DNA of 54,291 nt, filler included, from Jimgerdemannia flammicorona (taxonomy: Eukaryota): the NCBI GenBank assembly GCA_003990765.1. It is 3 parts of 3 records of this genome, joined end to end, with 100 filler letters (N's around TTAATTAATTAA, not from the genome) between each part and the next. Parts side by side here need not be neighbours in the genome. Positions count along the whole stretch, not along the records: positions 18,139 to 36,166 come from RBNJ01002324.1; 2 more parts are not named here. One strand, written 5' to 3'. Position 1 is the first letter of the stretch; each line of letters opens with the position of its first letter. Of this stretch, positions 7,400 through 38,377 are shown one piece after another. Below the pieces are notes generated by a model that made no database searches, was not told the DNA's origin, and saw only the letters and a list, made by a program, of their open reading frames with translations. A program made the translations under genes and the position numbers.

Positions 7400-9123
7400 A
7401 AATTATTACATATCTATAAGCCACCAGAATTTTTAATAAAATTTCTGACTAGTAGTTATAGATACTAAATATAGTATAACTATATATAGATATATCTAGT
7501 ATACTATATTTAGTTATAGCTTTGAATCTGTATAAATACTTTCTATACTAAGTATATTATAATCTTAGCTCTACTTTCTCTAATTATAAAAATAAAGTAA
7601 TATTCTTATTACAAAACTCTTAGATCTGACTTATTAATAATTCTGAGCCTAATTAACTTGATATATAAGTACAGTACTTTCATCAGGATAAGAATCTGAA
7701 AGTAATACTTAGATTATACTATTATAATAGATAATTAGAACTCAGTGCTTTCTTATAAGAACTCAGAACTTAGAGCTAATAGTTAATTCTAATTATCTGT
7801 AATATATTAATTTTATTAGTATATAGTTTTATTATAATTTAGTAGGAGCAGAAGTTACTCACTTATTTCTCAGTCAATATTATCAATATTATTAGTGATA
7901 ACTAAAGAATATCTTCACTCTGACTACTCTTTAGAATTAAGCTAAAAAAGTCAATAAAATTATCACTAAGTAAACTAAGATCTATATCAACTAAGAGAAA
8001 TTTGACAGACTTAATAATGAAACTATTCAAGAAGTATTTAATATATTTATTATACTCAACAAAGAAGTTGTCTATACTCAAGAAATCAGAAAAGAATTTA
8101 AAAGATTAATTAGTAATTACTTCTATAAGAAATATATAAGAGAATCTATCAAAGCTATAAGTAAATATTTTCTGAATCTTCTTCTCAATAATTACTATTA
8201 TAAAGCTAAGATCTTTCTAAACTATAAGAAATATTATACTAACTAAAGAAAATCTTACCTCTACTACTGAGTTCTTTATATATAAATAAAGATAATTTAA
8301 CAATAAGAATTACAAATAGCTAGATTTAGTAAAGTCTCTACTATATTATCTTGATCTAGAAAAATAGTTAAAGAAATACCTGAATTGCTATATATCCACT
8401 ATTAAGAATATTAAGTTTATCAAAATTACTATAGAAGATTTAATAATAACTTCATCAAAACTACTAACTTATAAACTAATTATTAAGTTTTCCCACTTTG
8501 ATAATATTATAGAAAAAATAACTATATATTATACTATCCCTGAAATAATAGTATCTGAAGGAAGACTACTACTATTCTACTATATAAGTGATGAGAATAG
8601 TAGAATGACATTAGCAGATAAAAAAATAGTAGCTCTAGCTAATTAAGTAGTTATACTTATTCAAGTTCTCTATTTTAGTATTAAAACAAACAAACTTATA
8701 AAAGATCTCTAACTTATACTATTTGAAGATAAAGCAGACTAAGTAATAATATTTATAGAATAAGTTAATATTAATTATTATACCAATAGATAAAATAACA
8801 ATCAAAACTCAGATAGTACTCTTAATAATAATAAGTACTATAAGATTAAAGATTAATATATATATATAACTATAAGCTCACAAGTAGAGAAAGTCACTAC
8901 TCATTCTATAGATATAGCTACTCAGTAGTGATATAATCTTTTAATATATTATCTTATCTGAGAAACCTATACTAAAATTAATATAAGTAAAGAAAGGAAG
9001 AGCATAATATATAGAATAAGATATAGACTAATTTTCTCTACTATACTTAGTATAGTAAAGCTACTAGATATATAGCTAGTCTAGGATAAAAAGATGTAAT
9101 ATTCAGAAGAGAGAGAGAGAGAG
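7400..9123 (+). mobile_element. Extremely AT-rich relic, probably an LTR remnant plus gag of another element, ending in a polypurine tract
   Basis: TATAAATA at ~7532, gag-like decayed frame at ~8640-8830, and the purine run gaagagagagagagagag at ~9106-9123. Confidence 0.3.
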
Positions 9124-9364
9124 TATAAGTTCACAACTTCCAAGCCATATATATTACCTCTGAACAAATTGAGAAATCACCTACAAGATCATGAAGCTAA
9201 GTTAAACTGAAGTTACAGCATACAAAGCTGAGTCAACTCAAAGTTATAGAATATAAAATTTATACAAACAGAATCTTACTAATCAAGACCAAATATATAT
9301 ACTAAGTATTTAGATGTGTTGAAATAGAGAACTATAAATAACCCTAACTCTCATATATATAAAT

Positions 9365-10444
9365 ATGATCACTGAGATCTACAACTATATCTGTACTGAT
9401 ATTTGAAATACTATTATCAATTAAGCCATACTCTCTCTGTCCCTCATAAATATTCATAGTCTAGTACTCTTCTACATACTTTGTAGAAGTTTGATGGAAT
9501 ACCCTGAATATACTTAGTGAGACTTACTAAATCAGACAAATCTCAAGCTACTATCAGATCAGCTATCTTCTGAAAAATATAGTTAAACACTATTATGATA
9601 TGGATATTACTCAAATATCTCAATACCAGAAACTCATCATATATAAATACTGAGAACTCTTTTATGAGTACAGTTTCTTTATTCCTTATCTCTAAGTTAC
9701 TACTGCTATGACCAAATTAATGATATAGTATAAGAACTCAATCACAAGTATATCAAGTATGTTCAAACTACAAACAGAACCTTTCTATACTCTGATAGCT
9801 ATATTTTACAAATACCTCAAGTTGGATATATTATGAAGGACATCTATAATATAATCTAGTTTGATAATGATAAAGCAGAAAATAATAATCTCTTTGATAC
9901 TGACATGACCTCAAGCCAAGGATCTCTGTCAACCTTGATCACTCTACCAACCTTACTAATAAATTTACAACAGTTTATAACCACCTATGAGACCTATTGA
10001 GACAATGATCACTAGTATGAGTACTAACTCACATTTATTCCTGACTACTTCAACTATAATGAAGAGACTAGAGAACACAACCTATATCTCAAGACAACTC
10101 TTGAGATTGAACTGACCACTCTATCTCCTGAGTATGAGTGATATAAAGCATAGCTACTAGCTTACTACAACTCAGTAATACATAGTACCATCATTCATAG
10201 AAAGTATATAGTCAGTAAATCTGATGAAAGTAAAGATGATATATCTCTCCTTTATCTACTAACTTTATACCCAGCATACAAGACAGATAATGCTATCCTG
10301 TTGAATAGTGATGAGGTCCCAATGTATTATTATCTTAGTAAATAGAGAGAAGTAATCTGAGAACTACTCTTCCTAGATAATTACTTCATCAGAGATGAGA
10401 TCATTGATAGTAATGTTATTGAAGACTATTCAGATAGTATCTAA
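9365..10444 (+). pseudogene. Decayed copy of the family B LTR-encoded ORF
   Basis: Colinear with the reverse complement of 12766-13863. It is 1080 nt from ATG to TAA, with many C-to-T and G-to-A stops. Confidence 0.8.
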
Positions 10445-11061
10445 ATCTATAGATAGCTCAGCAGTCATTAGTATAGTTAGATTAGCCTTATACTATATAA
10501 CTATATTCCAACTCAGCAAGGTACTAAGTACTATATCCATATTTAGGCTAGTCCAGATAGTCTTCTATTAGTATAAATACTCTCTCCCCCAGACCTCAGA
10601 ATCTCAGACCCAAACAGATAAGAACAATCCTGAATACTTCTCCACAATATTCCTTCACACAATTACTTCTAATATAGCAATATCATGAATAGCAAATAAA
10701 TCTATTTAATAACCCACAAACTACTCTTAAGTAAATCTAAACCCCATTAAGTCTCACTCCTAACCATATTATGAAATTTCATAATTGGGTATTGTCTGCA
10801 GCAATATGCCAATTCAACTAAGCTGGTCTTAGTTTCTTCAACTTTCTGAAATATGGAAAATCCTGAACATCCAGAACTAGTCTAAAAAAGAACTTTGGTT
10901 GAGACATCAACTCAGTCTTGAAATCAATAAGTATAGAGAATATACTCTATATAAAATTGATCTTAATCTAAAGAAAATAGTTTTCCAGAATATCTAAGAC
11001 TTCCAGAAAACTCTTCCAGAACTATATAATGATTATCTTAATAAGTAACTCTCTTATAACT

Positions 11062-11073: not shown

Positions 11074-12079
11074 TTTATAATCTAATTCTGCTTCAAGATA
11101 CTTCTTCACTCTATTATAAAATCTCTATGAGAATTTCTACAAATTAATATAAAGCCCAACCTATAAACTATGAACTATCTGACAATCTGGAGAGAATTGA
11201 ATCTAATATATAAGGACAATTTGACCTCTATACCTACAATAAGTAGAACAGACTTTATCTATAAAAAGAAGTACTCTAATTAAATCAGCAAATAAGTAAA
11301 ACTCTTTATATCAAACTTCTTGCTCTACACCCTACAAGTCAAGATGAAGAAGGTCTTATAGAAGCCTTCTTTACTTTTCTCAACAAGAGTTTTATCAGCT
11401 TTACAAATCTGAGCAATCTAGAATAACTAGCAGTTATTTTTCTAGCCTTAGTTCCTTATAAAGCCCAAGTCTCTGTAGCTAAGTGGCTCAACTCTACTGA
11501 CTTTTACTATACAAGAACCAAGACTACCTTATACTACTACTTCTAGAATTATAAGGCCTGCTATATTCTTAAGGAAGAAGTAAGAAAAACTCTTTATCAA
11601 TAACCTGACCCTGAACCAGAAGTAGGTCCAGCTACTACCTTATCTAAAACTAAGACCAATACTGAATCAGAATCTGACTTTGAATTAAGTCTATCTGAAA
11701 TCTGATATATAACTAATTCTATCTACTTCAATGCTGAGCAAATCTAACTATACAGAGATCAAAGTCAAGAGGAGGATGAGTATCTCAGTAAATTTAATAT
11801 CAGAGATACCACTAAAGAAAAAGTATCTCTATCAGAACAAAACACACTTATATAGCAATAGACAGCTATCTATCAAGCCCTTACTCCAGATCTACAACTA
11901 TTACTCCAGCAACTTATACAGACTTAAAGAACACTATCACACTCTATACTAGTATCTCAAGTTATCTCAGTAACACCACTACCAGTAGTCTAACTACCTC
12001 CAGTAAACAATATAGCAAATCAACAGATTCTAGACCTCAGAGCTCAGATAGCCATAATGGTAGCAACCATTACTATCTT

Positions 12080-14151
12080 TGTAAGAGAGTTGCTTTTTAG
12101 GGTAACTATTACATAGTTCTGGAAGGGTTTTCTGGAAGTTCTGGATATTCTGAAAGACCATTTTCTTATGGTCAAGATCAATTTCGTATGGAGTACGTCC
12201 TCTATGCTTATTGATTTCAAGATCAGATTGACATCTCAACCAAAGTCCTTTTCTGGACTAGTTCTGGATATTCAGGATTTTCCGTATTTCAGAAAGTTCA
12301 AGAAACTAAGACCAGCTTAGTTGAATTGACATATTGCTGCAGACAATACCCAATTAGGAAATTTCGTGATGGGGTTAGGAGTGGGACCTAACAGGGAGTG
12401 GATTTACTTAAGAGTGATTTGTGGGTTATAGAATAGGTTTATTTGCTATTCATGATATTGCTATACTAGGAGTAATTGTGTGAAGAAGTATTGTGGGGAA
12501 GTATTCAGGAATGTTCTTGTGTGTTTGAGTCTGTTCAAGTCAGAGATTCTGAGGTCTGGGGGAGGGGGTATTTATACTAGTGAGGGGCTATCTGGACTAT
12601 ACTAGATATGAATGTAGCACTAAGTGCCTTGCTGAGTCAGAATGCAGTCACGTAGTACAAGGGTGATCTGACATGTCAAGAGATCGCCTGACTGCTGAGT
12701 CAGTTCACAGTCACATCGTACAAGGCTAATCTAACTATACTATGACTGCTAGACTATTTATGGGTTTAGGTGCTGTCTGGGTAGTCCTCGATGATATCAC
12801 CATCGATTGCATCATCTCTAATGAAGTAGTCGTCTAGGAATAATGGTTCGCGGATTACTTCTCCTTGTTCGCTGAGGTAATAATACATTGGAACTTCATC
12901 TCCATCCCATAGGATAGCATCGTCTGTCTCGTATGCTGGATAAGGTGTTGGTGGGCGGAGGATGGGTGTATTGTCTTCACTTTCGTCGGATTCACTGTCT
13001 GCATACCTTCTATAGGTTACAGCACTATGAGTTGCAGAATTGTAGTAAGCTGGCGGCTGTGGTTCATGTCGCTCGTACTCAGGTGGTGGAGTGGTTGGTT
13101 CAATCTCGAGGGTTGTCTGGAGGTACAGGTTGTATTCTCTGGTCTCCTCATTGTAGTTGAAGTAGTTGGGAGTGAACATAGGTTGGTATTCGTGCCAGTG
13201 GTCATTGTCCCAATAAGTCTCGTATGCAGTTATGAACTGTTGTAAGTTCATCGGCAAGGTTGGTGGCGTGATCAGGGTTGGCAGAGATCCTTGGCTTGAG
13301 GTCATGTCGGTGTCAGAGAGATCATTGTCTTCTGCTTTATCTTCATCGAAGTGGATTATATTGTAGACGTCCTTCATGGCATATCTGACTTGAGGCATTT
13401 GCAGGATATGGTCATCAGGGTGTGGGAAGATTCTGTCTGTGGTCTGGACATATTCGAGGTACTTGTGGTTGAGTTCTTGTATCATGTCATCAATTTGGCC
13501 GTAGGACAGGGTAGCAATCATTTCACTGGTAGTGACTCGGAGGTGGGGAATAAAGGTGTTGTACTCATAGAAGAGTTCTCGATGTTTGCGGGCGATGAGC
13601 TTCTGGTGTTGAGACATCTGGGTAATGTCTGTGTCATAGTGGTGTTCGACCATGTCTTCCAGGAGGCAGCCAATCTGGTAGTAGCTTGAGATTTGTCCAA
13701 TTCGGTGGGCCTCACTAAGCATGTTCAGGGCATTTCATTGGACTTCCACGAAGTAGAGGGGTGCCAGGCTATGGATATTCATGAGGGGTAGAGGGGGTGT
13801 AGCTCGGTTGACAATGGCATTCCAAATGTCAGTGCGGATGTGGTTGTAGATCTCAGTGGTCATATTTGTGTGTTTGGAAGTTGTGATTGTTGTTTGTTTT
13901 AGTTCTCTGATTCGACATGTCTCTGTGCTCAGTATATATGCATTTAGTCCTGATTGGTAAGATTCTGTTTGTATAAATCTTGTGTTCTGTGACTTCGTAT
14001 TGACTCAGCTTTGTACACTATGACTTTGGTTTGACTCAGCTTTGTGATCAAGCAGGTGATTTCCAGATTTATTCAGAGGTCGCATGTAATTTCGGTAGCT
14101 TGTTCAGAGGGTGACATGTAATTTCGGTGGCTTGGAGATTGTGCGCTTACA
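12080..14151 (-). mobile_element. Young family B solo LTR (2072 bp) inserted in inverted orientation into gag of its own family
   Basis: TGTAAG...CTTACA termini and a perfect 5-bp TSD ATCTT (12075-12079, 14152-14156). The uninterrupted target is visible near 47490 on the minus strand. CpGs are largely retained. Confidence 0.92.
12766..13863 (-). CDS. LTR(U3)-encoded protein of family B, ~365 codons, with one premature TGA at 13735-13737 (318 aa open from 13722)
   Basis: Starts MTTEIYNHIRTDIWNAIVNRATPPLPLMNIHSLAPLYFVEVQ*NALNMLSEAHRIGQISSYYQIGCLL and has an acidic, Pro-rich C-terminal half. It lies wholly within the LTR, upstream of the TATA box (reverse complement of 12569-12576). Confidence 0.8.
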
Positions 14152-17100
14152 ATCTTAGCTGAACAAGTCTGACCAATAAAAAGTCTGAGCCTACTTATCT
14201 TCAATAGTACTGCACAGGAAGTTTAAAGCTTCATTAGTGTAGTTGACACTAACTTCAAAGTCAACCAATAGACCAATGAGTGAGTTGTTGACTACCTTCT
14301 GATAAATAATTAAGACTATACTCTGAAACAACTCTTTGCTATCACTATAGCTTATGTCTGCTAAGTTATTATATTCTTCTGAGGACCTACTAAATAATAG
14401 TGGCAAACTCTTTCTGAAAAACTCCTCACATAGGATATCTAATCTATAGTAGTTAGCCAGAATATAGCAAATAATGTTCCAAGATATAGAGACCACTCTG
14501 TGGTCCCTGGACTCAAATAACTCATAATTACTCAATATTATAGTGAAACTCTGATTGCCAAATCTCAAGTAAAACTCTATAACCTCAAGTTTGATATATA
14601 GTAAAGAAGAATTTGAAATCTTCTATATAAAACTTGAGTCACTTCTGAACACTGTTGGTCTAGGGTATATTGCCAATAATGAAGTATGAAATAGTATAAG
14701 AGCAGACTATTTATTTGATATATTATCTGAATAGTTTATAAGAAAAATTCAAGAATAAAGATGCTTAGTTAGTTGTGATTACCAACAATAGTGCCTGGTA
14801 AGAATCAAGACTATGATTAAGTGAATCCTAACAGCTGGACCAATTCTGCCTTGAAGACAATTCAACAATAAGAAAAAGACTTAGACTAAGAAAGAAGAAC
14901 TCAAGTATGAAGCATCTCAAGCTCCCTCTACATCCACATCATAGATACTCTGAAATCATAAATCCATCTAGCCAAGTATCTTTAAGAAACTTACTGAAGG
15001 AGAAAGAAATGAGCTTTGAAGAAACAGAGCATGCTTCTATTACTGAAAGACAGGACACATAGTCAGTACCTGCTCCAACTGAAAACTCTGAACAGCAATA
15101 CAAGTAACTATTACCACTCTGCACTACCTCAACAATCTGACCACCAGAATACTAGACTTTATCAAGTTAAGGCCAACTACCAAGGGCCCAATCAAAGGAA
15201 ACCAAAAAGTAGCTAGATATGACCTATATGTAACTGAAGAAGCTATAATTTCTAACTGAGAAGTTAAGCAAGTCTATATAGAAATCAGCATTCAAATTCC
15301 TGAAGGACATATTAGAAAAATATGCTGTTACAGCAGCCTAGTACTGAAAGAACTCTCAGTAGAAAGAGAAGTCATTGATGAGGATTATATAGGCAAAATT
15401 ATTATCCTTATCTAAAACCATAGTTAGATACTATTCAAAATCTCTATTGGTTTCTGTATTATCCAAATCCTATTTGAAAAAATCAAATCAACTCTGATAG
15501 TTAAAGAAGAAGTCCCTGAACTACTGTCTACTATTCAAGAATCTAGAGGATTTGACTCATCAAACAAGGCCCCAGCCCAACCTACCACAAGTAAGAAAGA
15601 ACAATTCTATAAGAAAATTAAAGATAGATTTATACCAAGTGGCTGATACCCCTATAATAAGAATATACTCTTTCCAAATGATTGATAATTACTTCTCTTA
15701 TATCAATGAACTAGCCCAAAGAAGAACTAATAGAAGGAAAGCTCTTACAACTAAAATTACCATCATTGAATCAGACAAACTACTTATACTTTAAGCTTTT
15801 GTCAACTAAGTATCTGTCAAGATCATGATAGACAGTAGTATCTCAGGCAACTTCATCAATAAAGAAATAGCCAACAGACTCAAGATCCTGACCTCTCTGA
15901 TATAACAGACTCAAGCAGTTGCTATAGCTGATGGAATCTCCTATGTTATTAGTAAGGAAGTCTGCAATCTACTCTTCTGAATTGACAACTACTGAGTACA
16001 TATTATACTCCAGATTATATCACTTCCTGATAATGAAATCATCCTTAGGATCTCATGATTAAAATAAAAGAACTCTATGATTAATTAGATAAACCATTCC
16101 TTGATCATCAAGAAGAAATGCCATAATTTCAAACTATAAGACAAAAAAGACCCACTCAATTCTAGTGACTCTAGACCAAAGATCACTTATATCAATAAGT
16201 TATAACTCAAGAAATTGGCCAAGAAATGCTCTCTCTTTGCTATCTCTATCTGCTCATCTAAAGAAGAATCTGAAAACCTTAAAGAAGGCTTCTCCAAAGT
16301 TGACAGTCATATCAGATCCCTACTTCAGAAATTCCAAGACTATTTCTAAAGAAACTCCTGAAAGACCTATCACATAAATAAGTAGTAGACTATACTATCA
16401 AGACCATTCTGGATACCAAGCTTACCTTTAAGTCAATCTACTACATGTCTTTGAGAGAAATTGATATACTCAAAAAAGAGATCAATAAACTCCTAAAACA
16501 AGGATTCATTAGACCCAGTATATTACTCTATAATACACTAGTTCTCTTTATTGTTAAGAAAGAAAGAGATCTATGAATGTGCATAGACTACTATGATCTC
16601 AATAAATAAACAATCAAGAACTGCTGCCCATTATCTAGAATTGATGAGATATTTGATAGACTTACTAACCCACAATTCATAAGTTCTTTTGACCTATAAA
16701 ATGATTATTGACAAATTACCATAAAGGAAGAAGACATCTATAAGATAGCCTTCCAAACTTACTATGGATATTTTGAGTTTCTGATTATGCTCTTTAGCTT
16801 AACTAATACTCCTGCAATCTTCCAGACACTGATGAATACCATCCTGTATCTATACCTAGATAAATTTGTTATTATCTATATTGATAATATTCTAGTCTTC
16901 AGCAAAACCCTAGAGAAATATCTTGAACATCTTGAACTAGTACTACTGAAACTCTGAGAAAACTGACTCTTTGCAAAACTCAGCAAATATGAATTCTTTT
17001 GAAGGAAATTTAATATCTTAGATATATTATTACTCTCAATAGAATTAAAGTAGACTCCAGCAAAATCTCCACAATTAAGAATTGGCCCAGATCTAAGAAG

Positions 17101-20072: not shown

Positions 20073-20315
20073 TGTAACGGTGACCCCAGAATGATGACAT
20101 CAGCACAGGAGACAGCCTTTCCTTATAAGCCACCAGATCAGAGTACAAGAAGATCATATGGCATATGAGATGAGCAATGATGACCAACTGTGAGTCATTG
20201 TGACCACAGCACAAGCATTCTGAAGAATATAAAAGAAGGATCAAGGAACTGCAGTAGCAGCAACCAACAAGAACTACCAATCCCAAAAATAGCTCAAAGA
20301 CTTATCACAAACAAA

Positions 20316-21131
20316 ATGCCTGCTGCCCACCAAACCTCAAGATCAAGGAATCATCAAGGTATCTTGGTCAAGGAAAGGATGTTCCAAGACATCAGAAGAG
20401 CCATGAGGACCCGCTCAAGAAGGACTCCTAGTGTCAACCTGGGTACTGCAGACCCCTATCACTTCATTCTCTACCATCACGAAATGGAAACAAGGATCAC
20501 CATTGCCACCAAATGCCTCCAAATGTGGCAGGAATATGAAATAGGAAACCTCCTCTGTCGGAAGTTCCCACAGGCCAGCCCTCAAGAGCTACAAGATGCC
20601 ACTCCCATGGACCTACGTGAGGCAAGGACAGCAAAGAAGATCCATCAGATCTTCAGGCATGCACTATGGTCGATCCCCAACTTGGAGTATGTTAGAGTCT
20701 CAGACTTCAGAGACCTGTCATCCCGCCATATCAATGCACTAGAAGCCAGGGTAGCCACAGAAGCCCAGTCTACCATCACACTCAATAGTGAAGAAGTAGA
20801 AGACTTCTGGCACCCTATCTTTCAGGATAACCCAGACCAATTCCTGCAAGGATTGATCTCAGTATTCCAAGGCCCAAGTATCCAGGTTAGATCTTCACAA
20901 GACCCCACATTTGTCCCCTATTTTGTAGAAGAGAACCTCATAGACTGGAGAGCTTCAGATCTTGTCCCTGATTTCCCCACCAAATGTGATGATGTCATCG
21001 GCGATGACGTCATCCTGCATGACATACCCGAAGCACATGAGATATGCAGCCTGCACAATGAATTCACGGACCTCATCTCCTTCAGTGATGATGATGATAA
21101 AGCTCCCATGGTCCTGAACTTTCTGCTCTAA
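20316..21131 (+). CDS. LTR(U3)-encoded protein of family A, 271 aa, intact
   Basis: An uninterrupted frame MPAAHQTSRSRNHQG...DLISFSDDDDKAPMVLNFLL with ATG context ACAAAATG. It lies wholly inside the 5' LTR, upstream of the TATA box, and has homologous decayed copies in the other two family A LTRs. Confidence 0.82.
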   Translation: MPAAHQTSRSRNHQGILVKERMFQDIRRAMRTRSRRTPSVNLGTADPYHFILYHHEMETRITIATKCLQMWQEYEIGNLLCRKFPQASPQELQDATPMDLREARTAKKIHQIFRHALWSIPNLEYVRVSDFRDLSSRHINALEARVATEAQSTITLNSEEVEDFWHPIFQDNPDQFLQGLISVFQGPSIQVRSSQDPTFVPYFVEENLIDWRASDLVPDFPTKCDDVIGDDVILHDIPEAHEICSLHNEFTDLISFSDDDDKAPMVLNFLL

Positions 21132-21138
21132 GTTCTTT

Positions 21139-21270
21139 GTTACATTAGATAATGCCAGCACCGGTATTCTCATGTAACACTGGATAATGCCAGCACTGGT
21201 ATTCTGAGGTGACACGAAATTGTTCCAGCACTGGCATTTTGATGTGATACTAAATAATGCCAGCCCTGGA
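21139..21270 (+). repeat. ~35-bp tandem repeat in family A U3, between the ORF stop and the TATA box
   Basis: Unit is approximately TGTAACACTGGATAATGCCAGCACTGGTATTCTCA. About 4 copies here and about 5 at 28388-28555. Confidence 0.8.
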
Positions 21271-21713
21271 ACTTAGTAGTTTTAGTTATTGGAATTTATA
21301 TTTAGCTTTATATCTTAGCAACTATTGAATTATATTTTGTATAAATACCTCTCTTATTTCCTCTGAAATAAAGTCAGTCAAGTTTCAGTCAAGTTCCGGT
21401 TTCACTTATACACACTTCCTTATAAGCAATCTAAGAGATAACAAGACAGTTAAAGATAAGAAGTTTGAGAACTATAAGACCTTAGAAAGGCACTCCAATA
21501 AGAACTTACTTATAACAACTTGAGTTAGTCTAAGAGATATACCTTGAAGAGAATCTGGCATATTTGAAGGACTCAGCGACCACTATGTGACAACTTGGTG
21601 CCCATTGGCTAGTGATTCAAGACAAATCCCTCACTTTCAAGCTGAAAAACAAACAACCCCCACAACAACTACCCTGACTACAAGAGTCACTCCCTGCAAG
21701 AATTCATGACAAG

Positions 21714-24700
21714 ATGGAAATGCATCCCCCTACATTCTATGGATATACTACTGAAGAGTCAATCCTGACCTTCATTGAAGACTTTGAACAATTTGCCGCC
21801 ATATGAGCCCTTGGTATGGATGCTCAATTGGTCCTTCTACCAGTCAGCCTCAGAGGACCTGCCAGAGTCAAGTTCAATACAGCCACCATTGCTGATACTG
21901 GTGCAGCCAAACTTGCCAACATGAAGGCCTTCCTCAGAACAATATATTATACCAAAAAGATCAAGCAAGCTCTCAAGGATCAACTCAATACTATCTGCCA
22001 GAGACTTAGTGAAGATCCCAACTCATTCTATACCCAAATTTGCCACCAGATTGTCTTGACTGGCTATGATGATCGCCTCAAGGAACAAATAGCAGATTCA
22101 ACCTTCCTCAAAGGAGTTCACCCTGAAATTGCCCTAGCAATCCAGTCTACCCCAGCTGCACTGACCCTTGATCAGAAAGTGGTCTTTGCACAGAGATATT
22201 GGACCGCCAGACACCCTGCTGAACACTCAATGGAGAAAATAACTGGCATCAAGATGGAGCCATCAAAGCCAACTAGTATCTTACCTACCATAGTTGTAAA
22301 CAGACAACCAACCCCACCTATCCCCAAGACAGCCAAAGCTGACCCAGTGGAAGAACTTGCCAAGCAGTTTGCTGAGATGACTGCACACCTTGGTGATGTT
22401 GTTAGAGAAGTCCGAAGTGCCAACAGGAGACTAGTGCAGAGATTTGCAGCTGCTACAGAAGAATGCAATAACATTACATACTTCAGATGTGGAGAAGAAG
22501 GCCACTATGCAAAGAATTGCATGACCAAAACAAGACACAAAGCCCAACCAAGCAATGCTAGCAGAACTAGAGAACAAACTAATGCAGTAGTCATCGAGGA
22601 GATTGGTGACACTGATGATGAAGAGTATTACAAGGAGCTCGAATTCTACCCTACTACTGAAGGTACCAGAACCTGGTCCAAGCCCTATGACAAGAAGAGC
22701 AACAGCAAGCCAGTTGGAAGACCAAAAAAGACTCCAGCTGTCACTATTCAAAGTAAGACCCAACATGAGGAGATTAATCAAGACATGGAGTTAGATGAGG
22801 CCACCTGCCAAATTATCAAAGATACTACTCTAGTCTCAGGAGAAAGTGAGAGCAAGAAGGAACAGAAGCTGTGCAAGACCAAGATCCACCAGTATGACAT
22901 CTACAAAGACCTCAAGGAACAGAAGGTCAATGCCACTTTTGGGCAGCTAGCTGAAGTCCCTGCCTTCAGACAGCAATTGAGAGTAGGACTTGCAACTACT
23001 GTCAAGAATCAAGAGTACAAGATTGTAGAAGCTCACAATGCACAAGAAGAATCTGAGAACTCAGGTGAAGAATCTGAAGACCAGCGCAAGACATCAGCCT
23101 ATACCCCCTGCCAGATCGAAGACTTTATCTTTGATGCCATCATTGATACTGGTGCTGGAGGATGCCTCATGAGCAAGAAGGCAATTGACCACCTAGGTTG
23201 GGACATTGAAGAGTCCACCAAAATGGTCTATGTCACAGCAGATGGTACATGAGCTACCCCCCTTGGCAAAATCTGAGAAGTTCCCATCAAGATAAGAGGA
23301 GCTACTATCCCAGTAGACATGATTGTTACAAGCGCCACCAACTATGACATCCTCATTGGCAACCAATGGCTTCACAAGGCCAAGGCCATCATTGACCTCA
23401 ATGCCCAGAAGATGCAGATCAACTACAGAGGGAGAAAGATACAAGTTTCTATCAATATCCACAAAGGAGTCCTGCCAGACATAGAGGAAGGAGATGAAGA
23501 AAACACAGAGGTCTTCATGCACTCGGTGAACAAGAACAAGAACAAGAACAAGACACTCAAGCTCACAGATGAGCAGTGGTATAACAAGATCATCGATGGG
23601 TATGCCCCTCAAGGAAGATGCCCCCATGGTACTAAAATGTACTGCTCCGAACACCTGAATGACTGCTGGTCCTGTATCAGTGAAGTCAGGAAAATCTGCT
23701 AATGAAAATATGAGCAAGAAGCTGCCAAAGCAAAAAGGAAAGCTGAAGAAGATGACCAGCCCCCAGAGCTTCAAGCTGACAGTGACGATGAGGAGGAACA
23801 AGAACCAGACATCACTCTCAAGGTCAAGAAGTTTCACCCTGAAGCCAAGATCCCAGAATACAAGACTAAAGGAGCCATAGGAATGGATCTTGCCAGCATC
23901 CAAGATACTACCCTCAAACCACAGATCACTACCCTACTTGGCACTGGAATTGGAGTCAAGTTGCCAGAAAACCATACCGGAATTATCAAGACCAGGAGCA
24001 GTCTGGCCAAAAGTGAAATCTCAGTTGAAGGAGGAGTAATTGACCCTGATTACACTGGTGAGATTTTTCTCATAGTCAGAAATCACAACCACACCACCCC
24101 CTTCGAAGTCAAGAAGTATGACAGGATTGGCCAGATGCTGATCTATGAAATCAAGAAGCCCAAGATCATAGAGACCACTGAACTTATCAAGACCAAAAGA
24201 GGAGAACAAGGCTTTGGATCTACTGGAAGAGGAGCCTATGCTACCACCAAGATTACCGAACTTGAGCACAAGAAAGACAAGGACCAGAATAAGCACACAT
24301 ATACCATTGGAGAAAATTTCCCCTGGAGGAATAACTTCTCAAGATCCTGCACCAGAACGAAGGAGTACTTGCTACAGACTTTAGGGATATCCACAATCAA
24401 GGACCCAAGTACTATCACAAAGTTGACACTGGTGATACCAAGCCTATCTACCAGAAAGCCAGACCCATACCACCTGCCTACAGAGAGTGGCTGTGAGCTA
24501 AACTCAAGAAAATGGAAGAAGCTGGAATCATCAAGCAAGCTATCAGCCCCTGGGCCTCACCCATTGTCCTTGTCCCGAAGAAAGGAAGCAAGCCTGGAGA
24601 GTTTGCACCAAGACTCTGCATTGACTATAGGAAACTCAATGCCATCACCAAGAAGGATAGGCAGCCCTTGCCGAATATTCAAGAAATCCTTACCACTCTT

Positions 24701-25747
24701 GGAAATGAAGCCAAATACTATACTACCTTGGATCTGTTCTCAGGCTTTCATCAGATCGGTCTCACTCAAGATGCCAGTGAGAAATCAGCCTTCATCACAC
24801 CTGATGCCACCTACATCTATCTGCGAATGCCATTTGGAATGTGCAATGCTCCAGCAAGTTTCCAGCAAATGATGAACAGAGTCTTCAGCAACGAGATTGG
24901 AAAATGGCTCTTTGTCTATGTTGATGATGTGATCATCTTCAGCAACACTGCATGGGAATATGTCAATCATATACAGCTAGCCCTCATGAGGCTCAAGGAG
25001 CATGGCCTCTACATCAAGCCCAAGAAATGCAAGTTTGTAGCTCAAGAAATCGCCTACCTAGGACATCTCATCAACCAGACTGGAATCCACACAGACTCCA
25101 TGAAGATCAAGGCTGTTGTAGCCTACCCGAGACCCAGAACAACCACAGAAGTCCACACCTTCCTTGGACTGGCCAGCTACTACAGAAGATTTATCAAAGG
25201 ATACTCCAACATTGCAGCACCTATCTATGAGCTACTGAAGAAGGAGACCAAATTTGAATGGACCAAGGAGCACCAAGAAACCTTCAATGAACTCAAGACC
25301 AGGTTGACCCAAGCACCCATCCTCAGAAGACCAGACTGGAACCTAGAATTCATCCTACAGACAGACGTGAGTGCTATAGGACTTGGAGCAGTCCTAGCTC
25401 AGAAGAAAGATGGACATGAATATGTTATCTCCTATGCAAGCTGAGGTACCCATGGAGCAGAACAGAACTATGAGTCATACAAGCTTGAATGCTTAGTGAT
25501 AGTTTGGGCAGTAGACAAGTTTCACTACTACCTAGCTGGAAAACACTTCACCATTCAGACAGACCATTCTGCTCTTGCCTGGCTATTCCACACTCTGAAC
25601 CCCAAAGGAATATATGCTAGATGGATCTACAGACTGCAAGAATATGAGTATACTATCAAGCACTACCCAGGAAAGACTAACACCAATGCTGATGCACTCT
25701 CAAGGACACTCCGAAACATCCCCATCAAGACTACTCAATATGAATAA
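21714..25747 (+). pseudogene. Family A gag-protease-dUTPase-RT-RNase H polyprotein
   Basis: Decayed zinc knuckle (Y)FRCGEEGHYAKNC, protease IIDTGA, RT LRMPFG and YVDD, RNase H LQTDVS and TNADALSR. It has a few C-to-T-type stops (TGA, TAA) and a frameshift near 24320. Confidence 0.93.
23817..24227 (+). CDS. dUTPase domain of family A pol, between protease and RT
   Basis: All five trimeric dUTPase motifs are present: GMDL, RSSLA, GGVIDPDYTGE, RIGQ and RGEQGFGSTG. Confidence 0.93.
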
Positions 25748-26987
25748 GGAGCTATACTATGGATTAATCAGCTACCTTGGGCAGCAGAAGATGCCCAACC
25801 ACCTCGAACCCTGGACAATCACCATCATCAACCAGACTTGGAAACAGTTTGAATTAGACAACACTACACTCAGAAAAGGAGGAAAGCTAATAATATCTGA
25901 ATATAAGAAGTATCAAGTAATGAAGGAAGTATATGAGCAAGGACACTTAGGAGGAACCAACACATATGACAAGGCAAGAAGAACCATGTGGTGGCCCAAG
26001 ATGGAAGAAGACCTGCGCCAATTTGTCAAAAGGTGTGACAAGTGCCAAAAACAGAAACAAGATCAGCAAGACCAGGTACCCAGATCATCAAGAATTGAGC
26101 CTATCCCCTTCCACCACATCACAATGGATATCATTGGACCACTACCAGTAATACTATCAGGAAATCACTATATTATAGTTATTGTAGACCTCTTCACCAA
26201 ATGGATAGAGGCAGGAGCATTACAAGAAGCCAATGCCCTCTCTATAGCTGACTTCCTACACCAAGAAATCATTTGCCACTATAAGACACCAAAGCAAATC
26301 ACAACAGACTGTGGTACAGAATTTATCAATGGATTCCATGAGATAATGTATCAGAAATACAAGATCCAGTACATCAAGACCACTATGTACCACCCTCAAG
26401 GAAATGGACAGATAGAGAGAACCAATAAGACCCTCAAGAACATCCTAGTAAAGATCTCAGAGACATATGAGAATTGGGATAACTATCTCCCAACTGCCCT
26501 CTCTGTTCTACAAGACATACAGTCACAGAGTACACATTTTACCCCAAGAGAGCTGCTCTTCAGAGAAGAAGATTCTGATAGAACCTCAGCTACAAATCTA
26601 GACCTAACTTGGAGATGGGTTGATGCAGAAATCCAGAGACTACACCAAATCAGGAAGAAGGCTGAGGATTACATCACCAAGTTACAAGGACTGATAAGGA
26701 AGAATACAGAAAAGAATTACAAGGCCCTAGAACCCATCCAAATCGGAGAAAAGGTTCTACTGTATCAAAATATGGTAGAAGCCTCATGGTCATGAAAACT
26801 GGAGCCCAAATGGGAAGGACTCTTCTATGTGCAAGATATTAAGGGAACTACCTTCTGGTTTAGAAAAATCTCAGGAACCATACTGCCTACCACAGTATAT
26901 AGGAACAGACTCAAGAAGTACCATAAACCTATACAAGAGAAGCAAAACGTGATAACTACCCATGAGGTTCTAGTCCACGAATCATAA
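25740..26987 (+). pseudogene. Family A integrase, encoded in a separate frame with its own ATG
   Basis: GHLG...CDKCQ zinc domain, MDIIGP/TTDCGTEF/NGQIER DDE core and a GPF-like KWEGLF...NRLKKYH region. One internal TGA at 26793. No chromodomain. Confidence 0.9.
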
Positions 26988-27541
26988 CAGCATATCCTGT
27001 AACCAGCAGGCTATCTGTCTGGACCATTCTCTAAGAGATATGGTACTGGCAACTACTCATCTATGAGACTTTTGCAGTCAGAGGAGTTTGAACCGTCAAC
27101 TGATTGGTCAAGATCAGAATCAGGCCCTTGCTCTATATGAAGGGAGCAACTCTTCACCATCACGCCAAAATATAAAGAGAAGACACCAGCCCATAAACAC
27201 TAGTTTTTGACCCCTTGCCAGAGGTTATGGGATCAGCAAATTTTCAAGACTGGACTAATGAATAAGAATGCTCAGAAAGATCCTTATTCAGGAGAAAGAT
27301 GTAACAATGACCCCAGAATGATGACATTAGCACAGGAGACAGCCTTTCCTTACAAGCCACCAGATTGGAGCACAAGAAGATCATATGGCATATGAGATGA
27401 GCAATGATGACCAACCATGAGTTATTGTGACCACAGCACAAGCATCCTGAAGAATATAAAAGAAGGATCAAGAAACTACAGTAGCAGTAACCAATAAGAA
27501 CCACCAACCCCAAAATAGCTTAAAGACTTACTACAAATGAA

Positions 27542-28381
27542 ATGCCTGCTACCTGCTAAACCTCAAGGTCAAGGAATCACCAAGGTATCTCAGTTGAGGA
27601 AAGGATGTTCCAAGACATCAGAAGAGCTATGAGGACCTACTCAAGAAGGACTCCTAGTATCAACCTGGGTACTGCAGACCCTTATCACTTTATTCTCTAC
27701 CACTATGAAATGGAAACAAGGATTACCATTGCTACTGAATGCCTCCAAATATGGTAGGAGTACGAAATAGGAAACCTCCTCTGCCAGGAGTTTCCACAAG
27801 CCAGCACCCAAGAGCTACAAGATGCCACTTCCATGGATATACGTGAAACAAGGACAGCTAAAAAGATCCATCAGATCTTCAGGCATACACTATAGTCGAT
27901 CCCCAACTTGGAGTATGTCAGAGTCTCAGACTTCAGAGATCTATCATCCTGCTGTATCAATGCACTAGAAGCCAGGGTGGCTACAGAAGCCCAGTCCACT
28001 ATCACCCTCAACAGTGAAGAAGTAGAAGACTTCTGGCACTCTATCCTTCAGGACAACCCAGATCAATTCCTGCAAGGATTGATCTCAGTATTCCAAGGCC
28101 CAAGCATTTGAGTTAGATCTCCCCAAAACCCCACATTTGTTCCTTATTTTGTGGAAGAGAACCTCATAGACTGGAGAGCTCCAGACCTTGTCTCTGATTT
28201 CCCTACCACAGCCGAACGTGATGACATCATCAATGACGTCATCGATGATGTCATCCCGTGCGACATACCTGAAGCACGTGAAGTACACGAAATGCATGAC
28301 CTACATGACGAATTCACAGATCTCATCTCCTTCAGTGATGATGATGATAAAGCCCCCATGATCCTGAACTTTCTGCTCTAA
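27542..28381 (+). pseudogene. Decayed family A LTR ORF in the 3' LTR
   Basis: Colinear with 20316-21131. It is 840 nt (net +24) with several transition-derived stops. Confidence 0.85.
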
Positions 28382-28862
28382 GTTTTTTGTTACACTGGAT
28401 AATGCCAGTACCGGTATTCTCATGTAACACTGAATAATACCAGCACTGGTATTCTCATGTAACACTGGATAATACCAGCACCGGTATTCTGAGGTGATGC
28501 AAAATTGTTCCAGCACTGGCATTTTGATATAACACTAAATAATACTAGCCCTGGAACTTAGTAGTTTTAGTTATTGGAATTTATATTTAGCTTTATATCT
28601 TAGCAACCATTGAATTATATTTTGTATAAATACCCCTCCTATTTCCTCTGAAATAAAGTCAGTTCTGGTTTCACTTATACACACTTCCTTGCAAGCAATC
28701 TAAGAGATAACAAGACAGTTAAAGATAAGAAGTTTGAGGACTATAAGACCTTGGGAAGGCACTCCAATAAGAACTTGCTTATAACAAACTTGAGTTAGTC
28801 TAAGAGATATACCTTGAAGAGAATCTGGTATATTTGAAGGACTCAGTGACCACTATATGACA

Positions 28863-30475
28863 ATATATATACTAAAACTTTCTCTTCTATCTTAATAATC
28901 TCTAAGGATTTGTAAATCTTCTCTACATTATTCTATTATAGAGCCTGCATCTTGGTTATATAATTCTCAGTCTTATTTCTAATTTAGTATAGTCTCTATA
29001 TCTTCATATCTACATATTTCTATAGTATCTTTATTGAATATTAGAGTTTCTTAAGGACTTTCTTTTCTGAACAGTATTTCTTATAAAGTAAAATAGATAC
29101 TTTATAATTAGATATCTCAGAGAGTAGATAATATTATTGACAGATAGTAATTTCAGTTTTTATAGTTATTATAGATCTTAGTAATAATATTTTTAAGAGT
29201 CTTATTTATCCTTTCTGCTTATCTATTTCTCTGAGAGTAATAGATTGTAGTCTGAATATACTAGATCTTGTACTTCTTATAGAAACTCTCAAAAAACTAG
29301 TTCATGAATTCTATTCCTCTATCTGTAGTTACTTGTATTGAGGTCTTGAATCAGCAGATGATTTCTTTGTAAAAGAAATCAGTAATTAATATATATTAAC
29401 TTTCTTAAGAGATCCTACTTCTATCTATTTTATAAAAATATCAATAATAATAATGATATATCAGTTATTAGTTAAAGTCAAGAGTAGTGGGCCAATTATA
29501 TCTATTATAATATATATAAAGAATATTAATTCAATGTATACTGATTCTGAGGTCTAATTTCATTAGTCTTATTTCTATTTCTAGGATTTATTAGAGATCT
29601 TGACAAATTATCTGATATCTTTCTCTATTTCTGGCTACTATATTGTTCTTCTTATTTTATTAAATATATTTGTTCCTCCTAGATAGCTAAGTTTATATAC
29701 TAATTTCATTACTTGCTTCTTCTTGTATTCAGATATAACTAGTAGTTTTTCTTTTTTCAATATTTCTCTATCAGTCTTGAATTGTTTCCATATTCTGTTA
29801 ATAATCATTTATATCTATTCTTTTAGATATTGAGACATCTTTCACTGTCTCAGATAGATAATAATTCTATAATAGAGCTCCTTTTTCATAGTTGGTTTGC
29901 TGGTTGAGAGTTCTTCAGAGTATTTATGAGAGAATATCTGCATTAATATTGATTCTTTTTAGATGATATATAATAGTTATATAATAGGCTTATAACTTTA
30001 TAATCTATCTGACATAGATTTCTTTAGGTTATCTAATAGTTAGTAGTCAAGTAAGGGCTGAGTAGTCTATTTGAATGATGAAGTATCTTTCAGTAAGATA
30101 GTAGTAGAACTTTTCTATAGCCCAGATGACTATAAGATATTCTAACTTATAGATTTTATATTTCTTTTTAGCTTCTCAGATTCTTTGACTAAGATATGTG
30201 ATAACATACTCTACTTTATCTTTCTTCTGAGCCAGGACTACTCCTAGTTCTTATATACTTATATCTGTCTACAAAATTAATTTCTGAGACTAATCTGATT
30301 TTTCAAGAATAGATACTTGGGTCAGTCTGATCTTGAGCTCATCAAATACTTTCTGTTACCTACTAGTTTACTGAAACTTGATATTCTTCTTATTGAGTTC
30401 ATAGATTAGATCTGTAATATTGAAAAATCCTTTAATAAATCTGCAATAGTATGAGGCTAGTTCTACAATAGACTT
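28863..30475 (-). mobile_element. Old A2 Gypsy relic (RT end, RNase H, integrase)
   Basis: The reverse complement aligns by eye with the family A RNase H/integrase and with 6645-7370. It is very TA-rich. Confidence 0.75.
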
Positions 30476-36266: not shown

Positions 36267-36938
36267 AAAAAAAAAAAAAAAATACAGGCAAATTTGCTTG
36301 CAAATTTGAACAATCTAAGGGATATAAGAGGGTTGCTTTTTAGGGTAACCATTATATAGTTCTGGAAGGGTTTTCTGGAAGTTCTGGATATTCTGGAAGA
36401 CTGTTTTCTTATGGTCAAGATCAATTTCATATGGAGTATATCCTCTACACTTATTGATTTTAAGATTGTATTAACATCTCAACTAAAGTCCTTTTTCAGA
36501 CTAGTTCTAGATATTTAGGATTTTCCATATTTCAGGAAGTTCAAGAAACTAAGACCAGCTTAGTTGAATTGGCATATTGCTGCAGACAATACCAAATTAG
36601 GAAATTTCATGATGGGGTTAGGAGTGGAATCTAACAGGGAGCAGAATTACTTAAGAGTAGTTTGTGGGTTATTAAATAGGTTTATTTGCTATTCATGATA
36701 TTGCTATACTAGGAGTAGTTTGTGTTAAGGGATATTGTGGGGAAGTGCTCAGGAGTTGTGTTTGGATTATTCAGATCTGAGATTCTGAGGTCTGGGGAAG
36801 GGAGTATTTATACTAGTGAGGAGTTATCTGGACTATGCTAAATATGGGTATAGCACTAAGTATCTTACTGAGTTGGAATGCAGTCACATTGTACAAGATT
36901 AATCTAACTATACTATGACTGCTAAGCTATTTATAGGC

Positions 36939-38036: not shown

Positions 38037-38377
38037 ATTTGTATGTTTGGAAGTTGTGGTTGTTGTTTGTTTTGGTTTTCTATTTTGATGTGTCTCAGTG
38101 CTTGGTATATCCCTTAACCCATAATGTAGGCAAATTTGCCTGCAAAAATATTTGGCATAAAATATCTCACTCTACACTATATATATTTATAAGATAAACA
38201 TATATACTGTAATTCCAACATAATCAAATATGTATGTCAGTAAAAGTTTGGAGCCAAACACACTACAATTGACATTAGTCAAGCAGTCATTGTCAACACT
38301 ATTGTTCTGGCTGCAGGCAAATTTAAATCACATAATTTAAGGACTATAATTGGTCATGATATCTATGTTGCGTCATG

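Follow-up and report, generated by a model that had tools for sequence, protein, structure and literature searches.

Can the long terminal repeat (LTR) of a fungal retrotransposon, where genes are not expected, harbor a protein-coding gene of its own? The question is raised by an intact open reading frame (ORF) inside an LTR of Jimgerdemannia flammicorona, within the 54,291-nucleotide stretch of joined genomic parts analyzed here (the window), and by a similarly placed frame in the LTRs of a second element family. We lean toward the view that, in two Ty3/Gypsy families that carry a dUTPase and diverged long ago, each LTR has two promoters and holds a genuine accessory gene, inherited from their common ancestor.

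Family A is represented by an element whose 5' LTR (A1; 20073..21593, plus strand) has TGTAAC...GACA ends and is followed by ACT and the PBS-like TGGTGCCCATTGG, whose internal region (21594..27299, plus) encodes gag (CCHC), PR, dUTPase, RT, RNase H, and IN but is interrupted by stops in frame and by changes of frame, and whose 3' LTR (A2; 27300..28863, plus) has a purine tract, AGGAGAAAGA, just 5' of it. A third family A LTR, A3 (49602..51131, plus), belongs to a 5'-truncated copy. Family B comprises B1 (about 9095..11059, plus, the start being approximate), followed by ACT and the PBS-like TGGTAGCAGTAG; B2 (12079..14152, minus), a solo LTR with TGTAAG...TTACA ends that sits in a B internal region; and B3 (36323..40793, minus), a 3' LTR with a purine tract just before it, which is split by a foreign 2.4-kb insert at 38111-40576. 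These are true LTRs, as seen from their TG..CA ends, from TGGTGCCCATTGG or TGGTAGCAGTAG after the LTR and AGGAGAAAGA or AAGAAGAGGAGAG before it, and from the 5-bp target duplication AAGAT around B2. The Ty3/Gypsy order gag(CCHC)-PR-RT-RNase H-IN was found in full in family A, with dUTPase between PR and RT, and the domains detected in family B (dUTPase, RT, RNase H, and the IN SH3) follow the same order. The initial annotation had called family B a chromovirus, and a PF00385 chromodomain indeed lies at the C terminus of its integrase (41227..41463, minus; E 1.1e-10). Family A had been described as lacking one, and none was found in the single family A frame that continues the integrase, which is the basis on which we do not class family A as a chromovirus. 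Likewise, blastn gave no similarity between the A and B LTRs, which had been reported as dissimilar in DNA sequence. The two LTRs of the complete family A element diverge by 14%, so that comparisons of LTR copies mix changes from before and after insertion. The repeats of this host show heavy C-to-T decay.

A long sense ORF is present in the 5' two-thirds of every family A and family B LTR of the window (three copies each). ORF A1 (P0001; 20316..21131, plus; 816 nt) is intact and encodes 271 aa, while ORF A2 (27542..28381, plus; 840 nt) and ORF A3 (49855..50685, plus; 831 nt) are frameshift-free with four and nine in-frame stops. ORF B2 (12766..13863, minus; 1098 nt) has a single in-frame TGA, at codon 43; ORF B3 (36939..38036, minus; 1098 nt) has 11 in-frame stops and no frameshift; and ORF B1 (9365..10444, plus; 1080 nt) is a remnant with many stops. 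The coordinates and lengths first annotated were confirmed. The accompanying remark that the six lengths are divisible by 3 is correct as arithmetic, but in B1 it conceals frameshifts, since deletions of 4 and 22 nt take the frame from 0 to 1 and back to 0. Only A1 is fully open among the six copies; the ORFs were used unrepaired, with stops translated as X.

Reading frames in the LTRs have evolved as coding sequence

With stops in five of six window copies, the ORFs might be chance open frames or functionless, decayed remnants. The way in which they have diverged argues otherwise. In pairwise comparisons of the family A copies of the window, all eight gaps in ORF A were multiples of 3, against 2 of 29 in the LTR flanks, and B2 and B3 were aligned with zero gaps across the 1098-nt ORF versus five in the flanks. 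Transitions account for 144 of the 149 differences between A1 and A2; since such transition-only decay biases Nei-Gojobori dN/dS, we replaced it by a context-matched permutation for the window copies. Synonymous differences were in excess in each pair: 53 of 100 for A1-A2 when 30.8+-4.4 were expected, 74 of 176 for A1-A3 (56.9 expected), 95 of 193 for B2-B3 (62.3 expected), and 121 of 265 for B2-B1 (86.2 expected). The observed value was reached in 11 of 5000 permutations for A1-A3 and in 0 of 5000 for each of the other three pairs. The excess was confined to the frame of the ORF and was gone in frames +1 and +2, a specificity that decayed remnants or chance frames do not account for.

Relatives from elsewhere point the same way. 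Nei-Gojobori dN/dS was 0.19 for ORF A against both L001 and L002, with dS saturated, and open relatives of ORF A were found at 86-26% identity, including full-length proteins of 323, 291, and 342 aa; that the frame stays open in relatives as distant as 35-54% identity is a further argument against remnants. The N terminus of P0027, a relative of ORF B, is open and has W at the position of the B2 TGA codon 43. Such relatives are few: a family A profile search gave 5 matches among 1.84e9 representatives, with no B-type protein among them, two relatives of ORF B were found in databases, a metagenome scan for related loci returned two loci only, both short, and a scan of viral contigs for such loci returned none. 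Contigs from four runs, including soil metagenomes, proved to be short pieces of a repeat family present in very high abundance, in which transcript ends or credible splice joints were not found; none of the best-supported 12 of their 48 indels fell within 20316-21131 or 27542-28381, which is a hint only.

Taken together, these results show that the A and B LTR ORFs evolved as coding sequence under purifying selection, and we find it hardly credible that they are chance frames or functionless remnants. The proposal of an LTR-resident accessory-gene family, made in the initial annotation, is borne out by the in-frame-only indels of ORF A, by the frame-specific synonymous excess, and by the N-terminal homology described below.

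Relationship between the A and B proteins

An alignment of the N-terminal ~120 aa of the A and B proteins had been made by eye, with HHalign suggested as its test; both hhalign and HMMER reproduced it, above chance. The hhalign P value fell from 0.077 to 5.7e-4 and then 3.4e-4 as more divergent A members joined the profile, and the observed score of 35.9 was reached by none of 193 column shuffles (highest 26.7). In HMMER searches, the A HMM scored 21.0 bits against P0027 (E 9.4e-9 at Z=1) and 0.1 against the reversed sequence, with a maximum of 8.8 in 2000 shuffles, and the B HMM scored 18.5 bits against P0019, again reached by 0 of 2000 shuffles. Run over 156 ORFs of the window, the A HMM had pieces of ORF B as its best non-self matches.

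The likeness is faint and local. Identity is ~20% over the aligned part and its detection needs profiles, pairwise BLASTP of A against B being nonsignificant (E 0.21 and 1.2); the alignment is limited to the N-terminal third (~120 residues), the proteins diverge completely past residue ~140, and nothing in B corresponds to residues 142-212, the best-conserved block of family A. Two unrelated ORFs, acquired separately at one and the same place in the LTR and alike at the N terminus through chance or convergence, could produce this divergence and the nonsignificant BLASTP result, and the hhalign probability of only 37.7% and the shallowness of both profiles (Neff 1.5-2.3) also leave room for them. 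They would not, however, be expected to score reciprocally in HMMER at levels that no shuffle attained and reversed sequences missed entirely (~0), to gain hhalign support with a deeper A profile, to align collinearly from near the N terminus of both proteins, or to be flanked by an identical promoter layout, and we think independent gain improbable. At the level of sequence profiles, the A and B proteins are shown to be homologous over their N-terminal ~120 aa, after which each continues into family-specific sequence and an acidic tail. The architecture first proposed, a helical N-terminal part followed by an acidic tail, was recovered in this form, the helices being predicted in poor models and the tails having a net charge of -13 to -33.

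No Pfam family was matched by the A or B proteins, and a profile search against the sequences in PDB found none at E<=10. AlphaFold2 models were poor for A (mean pLDDT 45.1, with residues ~54-150 alone at 58-73) and for B (mean pLDDT 30.2); when the two are compared through the hhalign alignment, their helices approximately coincide, which carries no weight at such pLDDT. With a poor model as query, the best Foldseek match in PDB had E 0.36 and the best match in a wide fold search with VIA-align had Z 4.0. The best ESM Atlas scores were 0.88 for A and, to unnamed clusters, 0.93 for the B N terminus. A handful of unrelated clusters (an unnamed one of 127 aa, Closter_coat, Translat_reg, and DUF6192) came up with both queries, a weak lead at most. 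By Kyte-Doolittle analysis of 21 sequences, no membrane or hydrophobic segment was found: the maximum 19-residue mean was <=1.5 in 20 of them, and the exception, 1.78, lay in a variant tail.

How did two lineages come to have the same gene? The initial annotation supposed that it had moved between them with the LTR. Exchange of LTRs, as might occur when co-packaged RNAs recombine, has a precedent in the fungal Gypsy element crapaud, for which the accessible part of PMC10787394 documents LTR swapping among subfamilies; the unlike LTRs of the complete family A element and the chromodomain present in B versus none found in A would also suit it. A recent transfer should have left the ORF more alike than the rest of the element. 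Instead, the ORF differs between A and B roughly as much as does Gag, for which tblastn gave no match: the ORFs, ~20% identical where aligned, are detected by profiles only, and the LTR DNA is unalignable. Identity between the families is 33-41% in dUTPase and 29-33% in RT-RH, and they have in common the position of dUTPase, TGTAA LTR starts, the spacer and TGGT that follow the LTR, and a layout with two TATA boxes. With Gag too diverged to be detected in comparisons of the two families, and RT ~33% identical, vertical descent fits better than recent LTR transfer, and the supposed movement with the LTR was not supported. Given the divergence of ORF, LTR DNA, and Gag, any transfer would be about as old as the lineage split and indistinguishable from vertical descent. 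We infer that the ancestor from which A and B descend already had the gene, which then diverged along with the two families, and we give LTR exchange little credence.

Putative promoter layout of the LTR and a proposed role for the protein

The A and B LTRs have a common layout that consists of a TATA box (P1), the ATG and ORF, tandem repeats, a second box GTATAAATAC (P2), and AATAAA, and P1, the repeats, P2, and AATAAA are present in every copy that extends over their positions. P1 lies 65-88 nt 5' of the ATG in all eight LTR copies examined. In A1, it is a TATAAAAG box (20228..20235, plus) 88 nt 5' of an ATG in good context, with no intervening ATG, and its position is -87/-88 in A2 and A3, -80 in L002, and -65 in L001; in B2, it is an ATATATA box (13933..13939, minus) about 75 nt 5' of the ORF B ATG, the corresponding positions being -71 in B1 and -77 to -81 in B3. 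Blocks TATAAAAGAA and CTTAYCACAAACAAA-ATG are conserved in A1 and L002, with 39-42% identity between the two proteins. From the ORF stop to P2, A1 has enhancer-like 35-nt tandem repeats (21139..21269, plus), varying in copy number among LTRs, and B2 has two copies of a 63-nt repeat that carries TGACTCA (12630..12735, minus), of which B1 and B3 are one unit short. P2 is the motif TATAAATA in GTATAAATACC in both A1 (21340..21347, plus), where it is the putative promoter of the genomic RNA, and B2 (12569..12576, minus). The AATAAA poly(A) signal follows at 21367..21372 (plus) in A1, 27 nt past the P2 TATA, and at 12438..12443 (minus) in B2, 133 nt past it. No P2 box was found in the 284 nt 3' of the L002 stop codon.

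The ORF stands 5' of a TATA/AATAAA pair within the LTR and would lie wholly inside U3, with the transcription start, poly(A) site, and U3/R/U5 borders placed by promoter and poly(A) motifs only. A different partition would make P1 the sole genomic promoter and put the ORF in a very long R or 5' leader, as the first cistron upstream of gag; some plant Ogre-type elements have an ORF1 upstream of gag. The constant distance of P1 from the ATG in 8 of 8 copies and, in A1, the good context and lack of an intervening ATG accord with that arrangement. It requires an R of about 1.1 kb, however, and leaves unexplained why an identical GTATAAATAC box stands behind the repeats and ahead of AATAAA in all seven covering copies of LTRs that are otherwise unalignable between A and B. 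It also sits poorly with the spacing of 26-27 nt from P2 to AATAAA in family A, which is the usual TATA-to-start distance. We regard a leader cistron as unlikely and continue with the U3 placement.

On these motifs, P1 would give rise to a short mRNA of ~1.1 kb with its 3' end at the LTR's own AATAAA, so that every LTR, solo LTRs included, would be a self-contained gene. P2, behind the enhancer-like repeats and just before AATAAA, would direct the genomic RNA; as the genomic promoter, it would place the ORF in U3, and the ORF would thus be copied to both LTRs in each cycle. We hypothesize that the LTR protein is an acidic trans-activator of P2, in a feed-forward loop like that of foamy-virus Tas with its internal promoter. 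This is a tentative guess by analogy. In acidic activators, a tail studded with hydrophobic residues accompanies a targeting domain; the A and B tails are acidic, and activation of P2 is predicted only.

The protein might instead assist RNA export or packaging, in the manner of Rev or of the Cer1 protein CERV, or it might counteract silencing by the host. LTR elements do have accessory proteins with such roles (CERV, in the accessible part of PMC10309623), the A1 N terminus is Arg-rich (net charge +7 in 50 aa), and repeats in this host show heavy C-to-T decay. Against these roles, the basic patch is absent from P0016 and family B (net charge 0 and -1), and no RNA-binding or other domain was recognized in Pfam; we give these roles a fairly low probability. 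A broader, speculative reading is that the LTRs of an entire fungal Gypsy clade are autonomous genes, each with promoter, ORF, and terminator of its own, solo LTRs that outlast their element continuing to make a trans factor for the main promoter or against silencing. The gene would then predate the split between dUTPase lineages with and without a chromodomain and be an ancient third gene of these elements.

Significance and comparison with known systems

U3-borne accessory genes are so far known as a peculiarity of retroviruses (MMTV sag and, in part, nef), and the A/B gene would extend them to fungal retrotransposons. LTRs are routinely masked as non-coding, and a neutral clock is read from their divergence; for families A and B, both assumptions fail with a gene under selection in the LTR, and the gene would have been overlooked because annotation treats LTRs as non-coding. 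It is a candidate regulator of element activity that solo LTRs could still express, and the A and B HMMs provide a direct handle for surveying fungal genomes.

A gene embedded in the LTR of a fungal Gypsy element was not described anywhere in the open-access literature that we searched. Among dUTPase-bearing fungal Gypsy elements (PosPlaTy3 and others), PosPlaTy3-5 are described with dUTPase between PR and RT, as in A and B. The accessible part of PMC2864245 does not mention an LTR-borne ORF; one of those elements is depicted with an 'add. ORF' to which no function is assigned and whose position is not visible there. Additional ORFs (aORFs) of LTR retrotransposons, as covered in the accessible part of PMC7264820 for plant Athila, Grande, RIRE2, and Retand and fungal Boty, resemble the A/B gene in being extra ORFs conserved family-wide without relatives outside the elements, whereas the A/B ORF lies inside the LTR itself, in sense orientation. 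[quoted passage not shown] CERV of the Caenorhabditis elegans element Cer1 is similar as a species-restricted Ty3/Gypsy accessory protein that acts in trans on the element's RNA, according to the accessible part of PMC10309623.

Membership by sequence of the lentiviral Nef or foamy-virus Tas-Bet families was rejected, with no Pfam match and no PDB sequence match at E<=10, and the fold searches with the poor query model gave nothing better than the Foldseek and VIA-align values above. Sag was rejected as well, there being no Pfam match and no type II membrane anchor, to judge from the 20 of 21 sequences at <=1.5. The internal promoter of foamy-virus Tas (Bel1) is located in env, not in the LTR. 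Tas differs from the A/B protein in this respect and in that no sequence or fold relation was found; the likeness is of proposed logic only, a second promoter for an acidic trans-acting protein near or in the 3' U3 that switches on the LTR promoter. MMTV sag is a superantigen gene in the U3 of the LTR, and Sag is a membrane glycoprotein of a mouse betaretrovirus. The A/B proteins have neither a hydrophobic segment nor a Pfam family, their host is a fungal-type Ty3/Gypsy element, and their ORF has its own TATA box. As in MMTV, a sense gene lies within the LTR; it would precede the putative main promoter there and be duplicated at both ends of the provirus.

Host retrotransposons of the window

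The window is crowded with nested, decayed LTR retrotransposons, among which self-comparison and inspection of LTR ends defined two families. One family A element (20073-28863) has a 5′ LTR, A1 (20073-21593, +), and a 3′ LTR, A2 (27300-28863, +), and the internal region between them encodes gag (CCHC), protease, dUTPase, RT, RNase H, and integrase; a third LTR, A3 (49602-51131, +), ends a 5′-truncated copy. Family A LTRs start with TGTAAC and end with GACA, the 5′ LTR being followed by ACT and then TGGTGCCCATTGG and the 3′ LTR preceded by AGGAGAAAGA. Family B LTRs are ~2.07 kb long and comprise B1 (about 9095-11059, +), followed by ACT and TGGTAGCAGTAG; B2 (12079-14152, -); and B3 (36323-38110 plus 40577-40793, -), which has a purine tract before it and is split by a foreign insert. 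B2 is a solo LTR: the sequences bordering it run on without a break in the other B copy (47695-43843), and a 5-bp AAGAT duplication flanks it. Family B domains are dUTPase, RT, RNase H, integrase SH3, and a chromodomain (PF00385, E 1.1e-10), while Pfam found no chromodomain in the family A frame continuing integrase. A and B are thus two different Gypsy lineages, as in the initial annotation. In both families, dUTPase lies between protease and RT (23883-24872, +, PF00692, E 1.3e-25; 46006-46374, -, E 6e-17), an arrangement that matches the one described for PosPlaTy3-5 of Postia placenta (PMC2864245).

Differences among repeat copies (7001-12000, 29001-30000, and the LTR copies) are almost solely transitions; C-to-T changes affect 45-67% of CpG and 19-51% of CpA sites and are rare at CpT, and GC falls to 19-30% in some stretches. 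This signature identifies the decay as a RIP-like or methylation-linked process.

The 2.4-kb insert that splits B3 (38111-40576) reads TTAA|CCCATAATG at one end and CTATGGG|TTAA at the other. Its inverted CCC..GGG termini and TTAA duplication resemble those of piggyBac-type DNA transposons; it holds a 230-aa frame (38616-39305) with many Ser/Thr/Ala repeats and, at 39468-40022, tandem repeats of 17 nt. Region 31001-36000 has a strong one-sided GC skew of +0.40 to +0.55 across 5 kb with a faint RT match at 33885-34154, and looks like an additional degenerate retroelement in which one strand took most of the mutations. Gypsy integrase remnants occur at 28901-30451 (-) and 51551-54291 (-), one 64% identical in DNA to the family A integrase and another with Integrase_H2C2 and SH3_Tf2-1. 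Two long stop-to-stop frames in GC-rich DNA (18086-18877, -, 264 aa; 1773-2435, -, 221 aa) have no Pfam match and score below 4 bits with the profiles of the A and B LTR proteins. Four N runs of 44 nt, in pairs 12 nt apart (18039-18082 and 18095-18138; 36167-36210 and 36223-36266), represent masked or unresolved sequence outside the present finding; one pair adjoins the B copy 1 end and the other adjoins LTR B3.

Coding constraint on the LTR ORFs

In both families, the LTR contains a sense ORF whose start lies 243-290 nt inside the LTR and whose end lies 460-690 nt short of the LTR terminus. Of the six copies, ORF A1 (20316-21131, +) alone is open and encodes 271 aa; the gag-pol of the same element carries in-frame stops and two frame changes. 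ORF A2 (27542-28381, +, 840 nt) has four in-frame stops and ORF A3 (49855-50685, +, 831 nt) nine, both with no frameshift. ORF B2 (12766-13863, -) is interrupted by one TGA at codon 43, and ORF B3 (36939-38036, -) by 11 stops with no frameshift. In ORF B1 (9365-10444, +, 1080 nt), stops are numerous, and deletions of 4 and 22 nt shift the frame from 0 to 1 and back to 0. The lengths initially reported are correct, but their divisibility by three masks these B1 frameshifts.

Since copy differences are nearly all transitions (144 of 149 between A1 and A2), with C-to-T change favoring CpG and CpA, a plain dN/dS is biased, and three other tests were used. The first was the indel pattern. Each of the eight pairwise gaps within ORF A measures 6 or 9 nt, as against two multiples of three among 29 pairwise gaps in the LTR flanks, and B2 and B3 differ by no gap in the 1098-nt ORF and by five in ~900 nt of flank. 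Second, each difference was re-placed at a random ORF site with matching base and neighbor (5000 permutations). Synonymous differences numbered 53/100 for A1-A2 (30.8 ± 4.4 expected), 95/193 for B2-B3 (62.3 expected), and 121/265 for B2-B1 (86.2 expected), none of which was reached in any permutation, and 74/176 for A1-A3 (56.9 expected), which was reached in 11. This excess over expectation was lacking or reversed when the test was run in frames +1 and +2.

The third test concerned relatives. For ORF A, a word-indexed search gave six at 55-86% identity and an exhaustive profile search of 1.84e9 representatives gave five, with additional longer members from cluster look-up. Full-length open ORFs are present at two related loci outside the window, L001 (323 aa, 54% identity to A1) and L002 (291 aa, 42%), and in the database protein P0016 (342 aa, 35%); dN/dS of A1 against either locus is 0.19 (Nei-Gojobori), with dS saturated. 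ORF B has two database relatives, P0008 (66% identity) and P0027 (89%), the latter with an open N-terminus and W at the position of the B2 TGA. The indel pattern, permutation test, and open relatives exclude a chance ORF or a dead remnant, and show ORF A and ORF B to be genes that purifying selection maintains, or maintained until recently.

The two LTRs of element 20073-28863 are 86% identical and 14% different, three in-frame indels included, and inspection of the LTR ends revealed no clean target duplication around it. Polarization with A3 assigns 34 synonymous and 17 nonsynonymous changes to the A1 branch, and 18 and 24, plus three stops, to the A2 branch. The element probably arose by recombination between two copies, as has been described for crapaud in Podospora (PMC10787394). 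If so, the copy comparisons partly sample divergence among once-active lineages, and dating by this LTR pair would be wrong.

Homology between the two LTR proteins

BLASTP between A and B gave no significant E value (0.21 for a C-terminal 20-mer; 1.2 for the region aligned by eye in the initial annotation). That alignment was recovered by hhalign, which pairs A 21-148 with B 4-133. The P value was 0.077 with close members alone in the profile, 5.7e-4 once the related proteins P0015-P0017 were added to the A profile, and 3.4e-4 (probability 37.7%) after further inclusion of the L002 ORF together with the open N-terminus of B. Shuffling the columns of the B alignment 193 times gave scores of at most 26.7 (mean 14.7, SD 2.6), below the observed 35.9. 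With HMMER, the A profile scored 21.0 bits against P0027 (E 9.4e-9, one comparison) and the B profile 18.5 bits against P0019, another related database protein (E 4.3e-8); reversed sequences scored 0.1 and -1.6 bits, and 2000 shuffles per target gave maxima of 8.8 and 8.0 bits, short of the unshuffled scores. When the A profile was run against the 156 stop-to-stop ORFs of the window, its own copies were followed by the two ORF B pieces (11.6 and 5.1 bits), and all others scored at most 3.9 bits. A and B are thus very likely homologous over the N-terminal ~120 residues. The similarity stops there: B lacks a counterpart to family A residues 142-212 (...WNPILQDNPDQFLQGL..F.GP...PYFVEEN.IDWR), the block with the strongest conservation in that family.

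The initial annotation had the gene moving between lineages with the LTR. The two families share a TGTAA LTR start, an ACT spacer and TGGT after the LTR, and a two-box LTR layout. Their dUTPases are 33-41% and their RT-RNase H regions 29-33% identical, and family A Gag has no match in B (tblastn, E ≤ 0.01). If the gene had co-diverged with the elements from a common ancestor, an accessory protein detectable by profiles alone would be expected. A recent transfer is not supported; an ancient one is conceivable.

LTR anatomy, possible function, and known systems

A TATA-like box (P1) precedes the ATG by 65-88 nt in all eight LTR copies examined, as TATAAAAG in A1-A3, L001, and L002 and as ATATATA in B1-B3. 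A1 and L002 have diverged in the DNA upstream of the ORF save for the blocks TATAAAAGAA and CTTAYCACAAACAAA directly before the ATG. A second box (P2), an identical GTATAAATAC, lies 127-244 nt downstream of the stop in all seven copies reaching far enough and was not found in the 284 nt after the L002 stop; AATAAA follows it by 26-27 nt in A and 123-133 nt in B. Tandem repeats lie between the ORF stop and P2 (a 35-nt unit four times in A1; a 63-nt unit twice in B2, each with TGACTCA), and their copy number differs among LTRs as 35-nt and 63-nt gaps. Since repeats, TATA, and poly(A) signal in this order form the classical U3 enhancer-promoter-R arrangement, we read P2 as a putative genomic-RNA promoter, which would place the ORF inside U3. 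P1, to judge by its motif, may be the ORF's own promoter; its transcript would meet the LTR poly(A) signal after ~1.1 kb, so that any one LTR could constitute a complete gene.

The tails of both proteins are acidic (net charge -13 to -33), as had been proposed, and neither protein has a membrane-type hydrophobic segment or a Pfam family. We found no PDB sequence relative, no informative ESM Atlas neighbor, and no fold match with predicted models, themselves poor. The conserved features are an N-terminal domain predicted to be helical, an acidic tail that is soluble, and a putative dedicated promoter adjoining the main one; family A tails carry the hydrophobic-acidic motifs DLIxF[SE]D and ...LNF.L. 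By analogy, the protein might be a trans-activator of P2, a tentative reading. RNA-handling and anti-silencing roles, taken together, are a slightly less favored alternative. A1 has an Arg-rich N-terminus, but neither P0016 nor B retains it, which argues against an arginine-rich motif of the Rev type.

The proposed trans-activator with a separate promoter follows the logic of foamy-virus Tas and its internal promoter. The nearest positional precedent is MMTV sag, a membrane protein gene in the U3 of a mammalian retrovirus, to which the LTR ORFs are unrelated by the tests run. On the sequence evidence, we regard the LTR gene and the A-B homology as solid. No description of an LTR-embedded gene in fungal Gypsy elements was found in the open-access literature, which excludes most subscription journals; one fungal element in PMC2864245 is drawn with an 'add. 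ORF'. Additional ORFs of LTR retrotransposons are described, in the sections available of one review (PMC7264820), in the internal region only, whereas the ORFs reported here lie inside the LTR.
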